Below are positions 26,232-56,898 of a stretch of 64,000 bases of DNA, one piece after another (the stretch's first letter is position 1; each line of letters opens with the position of its first letter). This DNA comes from Terriglobia bacterium (GTDB lineage Bacteria; Acidobacteriota; Terriglobia; 20CM-2-55-15). A program made the position numbers and the translations under genes. The notes under the pieces are model-generated. The model did no database searches and was not told where the DNA came from. It saw only the letters and a program-made list of their open reading frames with translations. The stretch is from positions 619,983 to 683,982 of the forward strand of contig CBDCKF010000001.1 in assembly GCA_965218085.1 (NCBI GenBank), written 5' to 3'.

Positions 26232-27275
26232 CTATTCGCTGAGTATGTTGTACATGCCCTGAACGTTCAGGGGTAGCCACTCCTCGTAGAAGGCCCAGTC
26301 ACTGTAGGCCTCGAGCGTGATCGACTCCTGCAACTCCTCCAGGGTCATTCCCGCGGCCATACCCTCGGCGACCGCGTCGCGAAGATCTTCGAGATACTGG
26401 CGGGCCTCGGCCACGTCGGCCGTCGTGCCGACCTCGCCATGTCCGGGTGCGACGATCTCCGCATTCATCGCCTCGACGCTGCGAATCTGCTCGAGCAAAG
26501 GCTCGAGGTCAACGCCGGGCAGCGTCTGAAACGGCAGCAGTCTCAGGTTCAGAAAATCGACGACAAAGAGGGCGTTCTCCTCCGGGAAGTAAATAACCGA
26601 CATGTCGGCGGCGTGCTCCGTTCCCGGTTGGATCATCTCGACCGTCTTGCCTCCGAGCGTGATCGTCGTCCGGTCAGAATACGTATCGGTCGGCGGATAG
26701 ACGTCGCTCACTGGTCCCCGCGCGATTTCGCCACCGCTCAACATGCCGTCTTCGTTGGCGTCGAACAGCGCGAAGGCGTTCTGGAAGTTCCCGGTGGCCT
26801 CCGACATCTCGATCTCGCCGTTGCCGTTGGCGTCCATGGCCGCGGCGTTGTCAGGTAAAGGCGCAGCCTGGTCGACCATCAATGCGGCCGGCATGTTCGC
26901 ATGACCGATAAATTCCGCCGTATCGGCAAAGACCTCGCCGCCCGAGGCGTGGTCCCAGTGGCTGTGGCTGTAGAGGACGTAGCGGACCGGGACACCGAAG
27001 CGGGAGTCCAGTTCTGCCTTGAGCCAGGTGGCGTACTCGCGGTTGATCGGGTCCGTCATGATGATGCCTTCCTCGGTGACCAGAAAGACATTGTGGTGGA
27101 CGTCGTTCTGGCCGCGGTACAGATCGCCAGTCAGGTTGACGATGCTCCGTGTGGGTTCCGCCTCGGCGGGCGGGGCAGGGGCCGGGGTCTCCGGCTCGGC
27201 CGCCGGTTCCGGCGCGCAGGCAGCCATCCCGAACACAAGCGACACTAGAGAAAGTCGAACGAAGATTCGTTTCAT
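26232..27275 (-). CDS. MBL-fold metallo-hydrolase lipoprotein with two EF-hand-like Ca-binding loops, paralog 1
   Basis: Lipobox-like FGMAAC; HSHWDH metal motif; DANGNGEIEMSEATG and DANEDGMLSGGEIARG loops (Dx[ND]xDG...E). ATG at 27275 has an AAGGAG RBS. About 85% identical to 55858-56898. Confidence 0.75.
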   Translation of the reverse strand: MKRIFVRLSLVSLVFGMAACAPEPAAEPETPAPAPPAEAEPTRSIVNLTGDLYRGQNDVHHNVFLVTEEGIIMTDPINREYATWLKAELDSRFGVPVRYVLYSHSHWDHASGGEVFADTAEFIGHANMPAALMVDQAAPLPDNAAAMDANGNGEIEMSEATGNFQNAFALFDANEDGMLSGGEIARGPVSDVYPPTDTYSDRTTITLGGKTVEMIQPGTEHAADMSVIYFPEENALFVVDFLNLRLLPFQTLPGVDLEPLLEQIRSVEAMNAEIVAPGHGEVGTTADVAEARQYLEDLRDAVAEGMAAGMTLEELQESITLEAYSDWAFYEEWLPLNVQGMYNILSE

Positions 27276-27360
27276 TGGGGTCTCCTTTACTTGTAAGAGC
27301 GCGAGCCACGATATCCTACTGCCAGATCCCGGCGGTGTCAAAAACGCGGCGGACCCCTGC

Positions 27361-27396
27361 GGCCCCCCCCTCGGACAGTTCCGGGCCGGGGGGGGG
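27361..27396. repeat. Homopolymeric C8 / G9 inverted tract forming a hairpin in the 5' leader of the MBL lipoprotein gene
   Basis: GGCCCCCCCC-N17-GGGCCGGGGGGGGG lies directly upstream (minus strand) of the 27275 start. Confidence 0.4.
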
Positions 27397-28273
27397 CATC
27401 GCGATTGGTTCGGTGTGCCTGGAATCAACCACTAGCAGGTGCGCCAGCAGGCAGGTTTTAGGCACGGTAGTCTATTTCGTCCGAGAGTCGATCATTGAAA
27501 TCCATAGCGGCTGGCTACCCCTTTAGCGCTCATGGCGCGACAGACTGAACCGCCGGGTGTAACCGGCCATGCAGACCAACCTCCATCTCTTTCTGTATTT
27601 TGTCTGCGGCCTCGGCGTCAGTACAACTATCGGCAACCAGGATCTCCACCTCGATGTGCTTGCCCGCCCGCTGCACTGCATCGCCTCATCCGTGCATCTG
27701 CGGCGGCGCGCAGAGAATGGCAACCTCCACGCCCGACCGTTCCAGAGCTTCAGCGAATTCAGTCGTCCAGCTTCCGCGTCGTGCTCAATGCACGACCTCA
27801 CCAGCGACACAACGTCGATGCCGGCGATTGGCGTCAATCTGTCGAGTGAGTCTCTCCAAGAGCACCCCCGCCTGCGAGAATAATCTTCATCTTGGACTCG
27901 TAGATGTTTTGTCATCGGCCGCGTGCTTCCAGGCCGATGCAAAGGCGTTCATCGCATGGCGGGACCGGAAATCGGCGGTCCCGAGGAAAGATCGGTACGC
28001 AGGGTTGCTGCATGGGCGGTCCGATGGCGTTGGTCTCCGCAGCCACTGGGTCCGGTCCCGGCGCGCTGGCGTCGATCCATTAGGCAGAACAAAACATGCG
28101 CAAGGGAGAGGCGACCGCTTTGTGCGTCTTTGTTTTTTCGGTCAGTTCAATGCCAGTGGCGGGGCTTGGTCGAGAGAAGGGGTGCAGGAGGTGGTGGTAC
28201 AATGTCTTTCGCGTTGTGCCGACGTTGCCGCTGTCTTCGAGTGGGCAGATCCCAGGAATGCAAAAACAATACC

Positions 28274-55256: not shown

Positions 55257-55291
55257 TGCGCTGAGAATGGGCCGCGTGTCGAGGAGGTAAC

Positions 55292-55792
55292 ATGAACACG
55301 TTCAAACGGAGCATAGCCGTGGGTTTCCTGACGCTCGTGGCACTCCTCGTCGGGACTGTCCAGCTGGTGGGACAGGAGACTCAGAAGAGGATTACGCCCG
55401 ACGAGGTCCAGTGGCCCTCCGGACGATCCTCGCTCGAGGGTACATCGTTTGCGACAGGGATCGAATCGGTCATCCTCCACGGAGATCCGTCCAGACCCGG
55501 TCTCTACACGATGCTTCTCCGGGTGCCTCCCAATACGAGAATCGACGCGCACTCGCATCCCGACGACCGCGTGGCCACGGTGGTGTCCGGAACGTGGTAT
55601 TTCGGCTACGGCGAGGAGTTCGACCAATCCCTCCTGAAGGAACTCCCGGCCGGCAGTATTTACACCGAACCGCCCGGAGCGAACCACGTCGCGATGACCC
55701 GGGACGAGGGTGCGGTCCTCCAAGTGACTGGCTTCGGTCCCACGGGAACGACGTACGTTGATCCGAGCCTGGATCCCTCGCGACCGGAATAG
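55292..55792 (+). CDS. Secreted cupin-domain protein
   Basis: Signal peptide. Cupin-like HSHPDDRVATVVSGTWYFGYG...PPGANHV. Confidence 0.6.
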   Translation: MNTFKRSIAVGFLTLVALLVGTVQLVGQETQKRITPDEVQWPSGRSSLEGTSFATGIESVILHGDPSRPGLYTMLLRVPPNTRIDAHSHPDDRVATVVSGTWYFGYGEEFDQSLLKELPAGSIYTEPPGANHVAMTRDEGAVLQVTGFGPTGTTYVDPSLDPSRPE

Positions 55793-55857
55793 CAGATACT
55801 CTTACTGAGCCCCATATCGCTTACGGTTCGCGCTTCCAAGATCAAAGGAGGACTCAA

Positions 55858-56898
55858 ATGATTCGAATCTTCATTCGTCTGTCTATAGTGATCCTTGTGT
55901 TCGTGCTGGCCGCCTGCGCGCCGGAACCGGTGGCCGAACTGGAGACGGCCCCCGCCCCGCCGGCCGACGCAGGACCTACCCGGAGCATCGTCAACTTGAC
56001 CGGCGATCTCTACCGAGGCCAGAACAACCTCCACCACAACGTCTTCCTGGTGACCGAGGAAGGCATAATCATGACGGACCCGATCAACCGGGAGTACGCC
56101 ACCTGGCTCAGGGCCGAGCTGGACGCCCGCTTCGGAGTCCCGGTCCGTTACGTCCTTTACAGCCACAGCCACTGGGACCATGCCTCGGGCGGCGAGGTGT
56201 TTGCCGCCACGGCGGAGTTTGTCGGCCATGAGAACATGACCGCAGCCTTGATGGTACGGGAGGGCGTTGCCCTGCCCGAGAACGCGGCGGCCATGGACGC
56301 CAACGGCAACGGTACGATCGAGATGTCGGAGGCCACCGGGAATTTTCAGAACAACTTCGTGCTCTTCGACGCCAACTCAGACGGCATGTTGAGCGGCGGC
56401 GAGATCGCGCGGGGACCGGTCAGCGACGTCCAGCCCCCAACCGAGACGTATTCGGATAGGACGACGATCACGCTCGGAGGCAAGACGGTCGAGATGATCC
56501 ATCCGGGCACCCAACACGCGGCCGATTTGTCGGTGATCTATTTCCCGGAGGAGAACGCCTCCTTCGTCGTCGACTTCCTGAACGTGGGGATGCTGCCGTT
56601 CCAGACGATGGGCGGATTTGAGCTCGAGGCCTGGCTTGAGGAGCTCCGCTTCGTCGAGTCGATGAACGCCGGGATCGTCGCACCCGGCCACGGAGTCGTG
56701 GGCACGACGGCCGAGGTGGCCGAGGCCCGCCAGTATCTAGAGGGCCTCCGCGACGCGGTCGCCGAGGCCATGGCCGCCGGCATGACGCTGGAACAGATGC
56801 AGGAGTCGATCACGTTCGAGGCTTACAGCGACTGGGGCTTCTACGAGGAGTGGCTGCCGCTGAACATCCAGGGCATGTACAACATGCTCAGCGAATAG
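55858..56898 (+). CDS. MBL-fold metallo-hydrolase lipoprotein with two EF-hand-like loops, paralog 2
   Basis: LVFVLAAC lipobox; HSHWDH; DANGNGTIEMSEATG and DANSDGMLSGGEIARG. Collinear with and ~85% identical to 26232-27275 (opposite strand). Confidence 0.75.
   Translation: MIRIFIRLSIVILVFVLAACAPEPVAELETAPAPPADAGPTRSIVNLTGDLYRGQNNLHHNVFLVTEEGIIMTDPINREYATWLRAELDARFGVPVRYVLYSHSHWDHASGGEVFAATAEFVGHENMTAALMVREGVALPENAAAMDANGNGTIEMSEATGNFQNNFVLFDANSDGMLSGGEIARGPVSDVQPPTETYSDRTTITLGGKTVEMIHPGTQHAADLSVIYFPEENASFVVDFLNVGMLPFQTMGGFELEAWLEELRFVESMNAGIVAPGHGVVGTTAEVAEARQYLEGLRDAVAEAMAAGMTLEQMQESITFEAYSDWGFYEEWLPLNIQGMYNMLSE

Follow-up and report, generated by a model that had tools for sequence, protein, structure and literature searches.

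A 64,000-nucleotide stretch of a Terriglobia bacterium genome (contig CBDCKF010000001.1, positions 619,983 to 683,982; hereafter the window) carries two related genes, copy A and copy B, which encode lipoproteins with a metallo-β-lactamase (MBL) fold that is interrupted by a pair of EF-hand loops. We consider it probable that these proteins are exported binuclear hydrolases with a Ca2+-stabilised EF-hand lid, working alongside proteins of the DUF6152 family. The two open reading frames (ORFs), whose coordinates we confirmed, and the elements on which this proposal is built are as follows, those below gene level being read from the sequence and its translation.

26232..27275, minus strand: copy A, MBL-fold lipoprotein with EF-hand pair insert (347 aa; Pfam Lactamase_B 45.9 bits; 81% aa identity to copy B)
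27216..27275, minus strand: copy A lipoprotein signal peptide, ending M-A-A-C (Cys20)
26703..26882, minus strand: copy A EF-hand pair insert (loop 1 26799-26834, loop 2 26727-26762)
55858..56898, plus strand: copy B, MBL-fold lipoprotein with EF-hand pair insert (346 aa; Pfam Lactamase_B 43.6 bits)
55858..55917, plus strand: copy B lipoprotein signal peptide, lipobox L-A-A-C (Cys20)
56164..56181, plus strand: copy B metal motif HSHWDH (residues 103-108: H103, H105, D107, H108)
56248..56427, plus strand: copy B EF-hand pair insert (residues 131-190; loop 1 56296-56331, loop 2 56368-56403)

The loops of copy B read DANGNGTIEMSE and DANSDGMLSGGE, and those of copy A DANGNGEIEMSE and DANEDGMLSGGE; in both proteins the two 12-residue loops match the EF-hand consensus D-x-[DNS]-x-[DNS]-G-x-[ILV]-x3-E at every diagnostic position. 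An AlphaFold2 model of full-length copy B (predicted local distance difference test score, pLDDT, 91.1; predicted template-modelling score, pTM, 0.84) contains the αβ/βα sandwich fold, and within it the insert is modelled at pLDDT 94-97 as two successive helix-loop-helix units (DSSP assignment), with two-residue strands at 154-155 and 177-178 that fall at loop position 8 and form the classic inter-loop β-bridge. Modelled alone, the 55-residue insert reached a pLDDT of 94.3 with the same secondary-structure elements and superposed on Ca-bound EF-hand pairs at 0.9-1.6 Å over 42-44 residues. In the full and the isolated model alike, the insert takes the paired EF-hand geometry that a preliminary description of the window had proposed for these loops. 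Profile searches for an EF-hand within the MBL fold gave a divided answer: the Pfam EF-hand models scored only 17-22 bits on A and B, below their cut-offs of 25-26, but a family profile restricted to the insert matched 504 PDB EF-hand sequences at E ≤1, with secretagogin the best at 1.8e-12 and calmodulins at ~1e-9. Some homologues have precomputed PF13202 or PF00036 matches. The loop consensus, the β-bridge and the modelled geometry are all shared with canonical EF-hand pairs such as the calmodulin lobes, polcalcin and the SCaMC-1 regulatory domain, but the loops of those proteins lie ~24-25 residues apart rather than 12, and calmodulin aligns only with a 13-residue insertion. Canonical pairs are also free-standing sensors, whereas the pair in A and B sits inside an enzyme domain.

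The combination of an EF-hand with an MBL fold, noted as unusual in the preliminary description, is real, but it is a conserved trait of a large family rather than a peculiarity of this locus. Among the 120 best homologues (50-89% identity), scanned with the pattern D-x-[DNS]-x-[DNSG]-G-x-[ILVMFC]-x3-[EDQ], 110 have both loops; position 12 is Glu in all 220 of these loops, and the spacer between them is exactly 12 residues in 106 of the 110, as it is in A and B. An exhaustive profile search of 1.84 billion representatives returned 543 cluster representatives (50% identity) at E ≤1e-30. One or two EF loops are found in 84 of the best 150, while the remaining 66, of ~290 aa, are without EF loops and align to the profile as two stretches, with a gap over positions ~125-184; homologue P0075 is likewise without this insert segment. 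No NCBIfam model reaches its cut-off for A or B. Of the named families, TIGR04559/TIGR04558 (PP_2678 of the P. putida ped cluster) scores best for A, B and the insert-less sisters alike, and the TIGR04559 model, a SoxH-like 'quinoprotein relay' hydrolase, gives A and B 98.6 and 100.2 bits against a cut-off of 280, matching them on either side of the insert and not in the insert itself. Its members resemble the A/B family in being exported MBL hydrolases. Since the insert-less sisters (75-101 bits) are as distant from TIGR04559 as A and B are, we take the whole group to be an unnamed family, in which the EF pair is, as judged from these alignments, a clade-specific and discrete insertion of ~55 residues into a conserved scaffold. 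When one genome was scanned for each species, relatives turned up in at least 337, mostly metagenome-assembled genomes (MAGs) of Acidobacteriota and Gammaproteobacteria. All of the 80 best are MAGs, from Terriglobia and other Acidobacteriota, Vicinamibacterales, Gammaproteobacteria (Rariloculus, Arenicellaceae) and Rhodospirillaceae. In the literature searched, we found no description of an EF-hand inside an MBL fold, nor of DUF6152, and a search on the calcium sites of Pce produced nothing usable.

Both proteins exceed the Pfam Lactamase_B (PF00753) cut-off of 22.7 bits, and their metal-binding residues are those of a hydrolase. Besides the HSHWDH motif, copy B has the ligands H220, D239 and H278; across 60 family members H103, D107, H108, H220, D239 and H278 are invariant, and H105 varies between His and Asp. 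The predicted site would hold two metals with D239 between them, one bound by H103/H105/H220 and the other by D107/H108/H278. As position 121 is His (H108) and position 221 is Asp (D239), it would be of the general binuclear hydrolase type, unlike that of B1 lactamases, which contains Cys221. The second His of the motif is replaced by Asp (HSDWDH or HSDFDH; H-x-D-x-D-H) in 41 of the 120 closest homologues, including P0003-P0052, and the HSHWDH version seen in the window occurs in only three of the 120. A subgroup of 500-540 aa (P0174, P0188, P0203, P0220, P0247, P0262 and ~20 more) keeps the EF loops, carries Arg at the H108 position and Asp, Ser, Thr or Ala at that of H278, and bears an extra C-terminal region of ~190 aa with no Pfam match.

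Export of both copies is indicated by their signal peptides. Cys20 is followed by a Pro/Ala/Glu-rich tether that is disordered in the model, where residues 17-34 of copy B fall below pLDDT 50. A lipobox-like motif is found in 58 of the 120 homologues, and the others have ordinary signal peptides. The lipobox Cys, HSHWDH motif and two EF loops that the preliminary description ascribed to a pair of MBL-fold lipoproteins are all present in A and B. For copy A, the longest ORF begins at 27428 and adds only an unrelated leader; the start homologous to that of B is the ATG at 27275. The two proteins are collinear, with 281 of 347 residues identical (81%, BLASTP) and a single 1-residue gap, and their coding DNA is 84.5% identical over 346 aligned codons. 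A and B are therefore collinear paralogs in inverted orientation with elevated similarity at the DNA level, as had been described, and the earlier figure of ~85% identity holds for the DNA but not for the protein. They are divergent, each transcribed outward, and are spaced 28,582 bp apart. Their DNA homology runs from ~35 nt 5' of the ATG, taking in a common ribosome-binding site (AAAGGAG), precisely to the TAG stop codon, and the flanks gave no alignment outside the gene and this leader. At the observed synonymous divergence (dS 0.53), neutral flanks are expected to be only ~62% identical, so homology of exactly gene size requires no special explanation. The same divergence, with a ratio of nonsynonymous to synonymous divergence (dN/dS) of 0.18, implies that both copies are functional: they are long-diverged paralogs, maintained separately, and both are under purifying selection. 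The third-position GC content of A (0.80) and B (0.86) lies above that of every neighbour, whether other module genes or housekeeping genes (0.57-0.75). A scan for sigma-70 promoters and terminators around B showed no excess over shuffled sequences.

The place of the insert in the fold suggests what it may do. In a phmmer alignment to SPM-1, residues 94-135 of the query reach the start of α3 and residues 205-284 fall after it, and from this gap we infer that the EF pair takes the place of the α3 region. The α3 region of B2 enzymes and SPM-1, which is short, flanks the active site as a hydrophobic wall; that of SPM-1 is mobile, adopts open and closed states and is required for full activity (PMC4333608). 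The α3 'lid' of CphA (B2) and SPM-1 is likewise an expanded element at this topological position, with the HxHxDH strand-helix unit on one side and the second β-sheet on the other, where it borders the active site and affects activity. It differs from the insert in being a kinked helix (with an extra helix in SPM-1) and in having no metal site, whereas the A/B family would have a two-site EF-hand domain there. By this analogy the EF pair would be a lid or wall of the substrate pocket, lying where the α3 'wall' runs along the active-site groove of CphA and SPM-1. We propose that after export two Ca2+ ions would occupy the loops and stiffen the insert, that the loaded pair would then shape the pocket, and that Ca2+ loading would make the enzyme stable only outside the cytoplasm. 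The A/B genes would belong to multi-copy envelope modules centred on DUF6152 proteins, in a pairing that recurs across phyla: among ~83 homologous loci, DUF6152 is the only widely recurrent neighbour of the MBL-EF gene, lying within 8 kb of it in 23 loci from several phyla and adjacent to it in ~11.

Several points weigh against this proposal. The DUF6152 association holds in only ~28% of loci, and other neighbours vary (Mo-hydroxylases, PQQ dehydrogenases, sulfatases, aldolases; PQQ, pyrroloquinoline quinone). The window proteins themselves fall short of the Pfam EF-hand cut-offs, and the motif by itself is enough for AlphaFold to draw an EF-hand, which makes the modelled geometry a test that is not wholly independent of sequence. 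With Asp for the second His in one third of close homologues, the catalytic metal may be other than zinc. The closeness of the insert to the active site is drawn from a sequence alignment and the literature, not from measured distances, and metal binding and activity are predicted.

A related reading makes the EF pair a regulatory switch, in which the lid would open or shut as periplasmic or external Ca2+ changes, so switching hydrolysis on or off. The open/closed switching of the homologous SPM-1 α3 region (PMC4333608) is consistent with such a role, as are the loops themselves, which are canonical sensor-type EF loops; the 500-540-aa subgroup, in which the EF loops outlast an altered second metal site, also suggests a value beyond simple stabilisation. 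Nevertheless, we regard a switch as unlikely, though it is the best of the alternatives. Extracytoplasmic Ca2+ normally far exceeds typical EF-hand affinities and would leave the sites permanently filled, and the 12-residue connection between the loops is very short, with little room for sensor-type helix rearrangements. Even so, the data do not separate a switch from a purely structural role.

It is much less likely that the pair binds lanthanides in the manner of lanmodulin and ties the hydrolase to lanthanide- and PQQ-dependent metabolism. The spacing of ~12 residues between adjacent EF loops is unusual and has been cited as a hallmark of lanmodulin (PMC11576760), with which A and B also share an exported location, and members of the nearest named family, TIGR04559, sit in Ln3+/PQQ alcohol dehydrogenase clusters (PMC12997753); moreover, a PQQ dehydrogenase lies within 8 kb in six of the ~83 homologous loci. 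The loops themselves argue otherwise. Lanmodulin is a small protein with four EF-hands whose loops follow the motif D1-P2-D3-x-D5-x3-D9-x2-E12 (PMC11576760), while Pro occupies position 2 in none of the 220 loops of the A/B family, Asn prevails at position 3 and also occupies position 5 of loop 1, Ser stands at position 9 of loop 2, and most loops have only three acidic ligands. The hint of a lanthanide site in the preliminary description is thus reduced to the spacing, the one lanmodulin loop feature that A and B have, and lanmodulin was not among the structural matches of the insert. The kinship with TIGR04559 is also distant (100 bits against 280), and the PQQ dehydrogenase, SoxYZ-like carrier and rhodanese that define the context of that family were not found among the window ORFs scanned.

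The surroundings of A and B bear on the remaining alternatives. Positions 1-14,300 of the window are a housekeeping block (topA, trmFO, xerC, obg, nadD, rlmH, lpxC, polA), and a tRNA-Val (GAC) gene at 14305-14377 marks its exact border with a variable block rich in insertion sequences (IS); no integrase was found beside this tRNA gene. The variable block contains a group II intron, IS and transposase fragments, seven DUF6152 genes, two HbpS-like genes and a TonB-type barrel. Its features around A and B are these:

23459..25390, minus strand: group II intron just downstream of A (reverse transcriptase/maturase ORF 23459-24733, domains 1-4 25212-25390; Rfam RF02001 64.1 bits; Pfam RVT_1, GIIM)
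27331..28243: extra segment of ~0.9 kb (~914 bp) between A and the A-side module, flanked by the direct repeat GGGATCTG; not in loci L009 and L010
28274..31015, minus strand: A-side module upstream of A, comprising a 240-aa protein (28274-28996), DUF6152 (29048-29431), a luciferase-domain protein (29611-29943) and an HbpS-like protein (30404-30982), defined by Pfam, paralogy to B-side genes and gene calls on L095
55292..55792, plus strand: exported cupin directly upstream of B (Pfam Cupin_7 29.2 bits), which always adjoins B in the other contigs
57116..57607, plus strand: HbpS-like protein (PF03928, 100.3 bits) downstream of B, in the same place in the paralogous module on L003
58278..58679, plus strand: DUF6152 of the B module (Pfam 73.1 bits; 62% aa identity to 29048-29431)
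58737..59504, plus strand: third MBL-fold protein (255 aa, N-terminal membrane helix, HGHGDH; Pfam Lactamase_B 67.9 bits; under all NCBIfam cut-offs)
59719..60432, plus strand: exported 237-aa partner of DUF6152 (69% aa identity to 28274-29041; gene call on L001; no Pfam or PDB relative)
60541..61887, minus strand: IS with 29-nt terminal inverted repeats, missing from L002; L001 has two other IS in its place

The preliminary description spoke of a cassette region. We rejected an integron cassette array: the only tyrosine recombinase in the window (3750-4652) lies in the housekeeping block and is XerC (338.7 bits against a cut-off of 335.15), not IntI, scoring 121 bits on the integron integrase model with its cut-off of 265; the genes of the region lie on both strands, and their sizes include 1.2-3.3 kb, among them a 3.3-kb outer-membrane barrel. 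A repeat search of the region, in which no dedicated attC model was run, found no attC-like repeat family. What repeats instead are DUF6152-centred modules, and the region is more aptly called an array of paralogous modules for envelope proteins. The third MBL-fold protein is real and unrelated to A and B, as first described, but it belongs to such a module rather than to a cassette and is kept within it on L003, L009 and L010.

The seven DUF6152 (PF19649) genes or fragments of the window lie at 21774-22193, 25781-25963, 29048-29431, 33103-33615, 36916-37317, 58278-58679 and 61920-62327. Each adjoins an unannotated exported protein of one of two families, the first represented at 28274-29041, 33655-34545, 59719-60432 and 62344-63093, and the second at 22254-23093, 35723-36901 and 37494-38477; other phyla have DUF6152 and the family 2 partner fused in a single protein of 335-400 aa. 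Neither the DUF6152 protein nor its partner found a relative in PDB sequence searches. After its signal peptide the DUF6152 copy at 58278 reads HHAHG, and a homologue elsewhere reads HHS. The two adjacent family 2 genes share a 300-nt stretch that is 100% identical (35718-36017 and 37489-37788) within an overall identity of 88%, a sign that gene conversion or duplication may have taken place in the array very recently; more diverged copies of the stretch occur nearby at 36636-36935 and 43630-43859.

Inverted similarity between the two sides extends beyond the MBL genes (28347-28918 with 59791-60362, and 29203-29376 with 58339-58512, both 77%), and the module orders, HbpS, DUF6152, 240-aa protein and MBL-EF on the A side and MBL-EF, HbpS, DUF6152, MBL255 and 237-aa protein on the B side, are circular permutations of one another. 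The extra segment at 27331-28243, whose direct repeat is near-perfect (GGGATCTG(C/G)C), could be a small, non-autonomous mobile element and would then uncouple copy A from its operon; on L009 and L010 the upstream gene abuts copy A. Elsewhere, L029, L032, L034, L035 and eight other loci from Rhodospirillaceae and Gammaproteobacteria MAGs have the MBL-EF gene and a long DUF6152 beside a ~750-aa CBM9_1/DUF5916 protein. In another gammaproteobacterial set, the MBL-EF gene follows a molybdopterin hydroxylase operon, with a cytochrome b gene as well at L005, the single such locus with gene calls.

That A and B are inverted repeats through which homologous recombination flips the 28.6-kb segment between them, as the preliminary description suggested, is highly improbable. 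The genes do form inverted repeats of ~1.04 kb, and the region is structurally polymorphic within the same samples, as seen in assembled long-read metagenome contigs. Among the contigs compared, however, we found no A×B inversion isomer and no breakpoint inside either MBL gene. Exact copies of B, on ctg246649, ctg825678 and one Logan contig, always stand in the order cupin-B-HbpS; exact A is found on ctg813485 and ctg256211, and an A-like gene (protein P0002, 97% nt identity to A) on ctg357159 and ctg469414, and all contigs with exact or near-exact A keep the same 5' neighbour module. Each copy thus retains its own 5' neighbours in every contig that carries it. The haplotype breakpoints lie outside the MBL genes, one ~100 nt 3' of A and the other, where two IS are present, past the 5' end of the gene for the outer-membrane barrel. 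The first is that of L009 and L010, which diverge from the window ~100 nt downstream of the A stop codon; a simple A×B inversion was rejected for their arrangement, since the shared sequence ends at that point and the reshuffled blocks do not fit one inversion. The second is that of ctg256211 (534 kb), which is 99.99% identical to window positions 16232-37275 and then has two IS upstream of the barrel gene before entering a different region. This contig carries exact A and, 26 kb away in direct orientation to it, a third paralog, C; it too was rejected as an inversion isomer, its B-like gene being another allele, 88% identical to B at the nt level, that is connected by way of the two IS beyond the barrel gene. 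IS content after 60432 also differs between haplotypes: at the site of the single IS of the window, L001 has two different DDE transposase genes (14572-17776) and L002 has none.

Paralogs of this family have exchanged sequence in the past. Paralog C, on L003, resembles B at nt 350-500 and 850-1041 but A at nt 650-850, and with 147 informative sites this A/B mosaic is significant (maximum chi-square 24.0, reached in 0 of 1000 permutations; runs test p 0.007), which points to past gene conversion. The module to which C belongs (L003, ctg256211 223622-244662) consists of MBL-EF, HbpS, DUF6152, MBL255 and the 237-aa protein; it is surrounded by several transposases, a group II intron reverse transcriptase and ParA/ParB genes, suggesting that it lies on or beside an integrated mobile or plasmid-like element. 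Such exchange would favour recombination between A and B, but at 84.5% identity their longest identical runs are only 43, 27 and 26 nt, homology ends at the gene ends, and a dS of 0.53 speaks against recent homogenisation. As the genes read outward, a flip would alter neither promoter nor product. A and B are old copies and poor recombination substrates, and their inverted arrangement is best explained as a by-product of module duplication and shuffling in an IS-rich variable region downstream of tRNA-Val, not a recombination device.

Least likely of all is that A and B are environmental subclass B1-like β-lactamases, and hence antibiotic-resistance enzymes: B1 enzymes do rank among their best sequence and structure matches, but the NCBIfam B1 model NF033088 gives only 44.6 and 47.2 bits against a cut-off of 200, position 221 is Asp239 rather than Cys with His108 at position 121, and the best structural match is a dehalogenase with a common C-terminal helical domain. 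That enzyme, the chlorothalonil hydrolytic dehalogenase Chd (PDB 6uxu), has the C-terminal helical extension present in the A/B model, but it and the Burkholderia MBL-superfamily protein 8d2z are only 16-19% identical to A and B in sequence, and both are without the EF-hand insert, 8d2z having ~28 residues where the A/B family has ~60. Nothing suggests dehalogenase chemistry for A or B.

In conclusion, the interest of this region lies in the protein family that it revealed; the way in which the genes are arranged amounts to ordinary paralogy in a variable region rich in IS. The family is large, with 543 clusters and at least 337 species genomes, is almost confined to uncultured bacteria from soils and the sea, and none of its members is characterised, as is also true of DUF6152, its recurrent neighbour. 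In a broader reading that we offer with considerable doubt, the EF-hand pair, with its lanmodulin-like loop spacing of 12 residues, would be a metal-gated lid (Ca2+ or, just possibly, lanthanides) controlling the exported hydrolase, which with the DUF6152 proteins and the outer-membrane barrel would make up an unrecognised envelope processing or uptake system found from Acidobacteriota to Gammaproteobacteria. In MBL-fold enzymes the metal site is constant, and specificity is tuned by the loops and inserts that surround it. An EF-hand domain with two sites, self-contained and placed at the α3 'lid' position, would, if true, be a new way to build or gate the pocket, and a ready-made scaffold for metal-controlled hydrolases.

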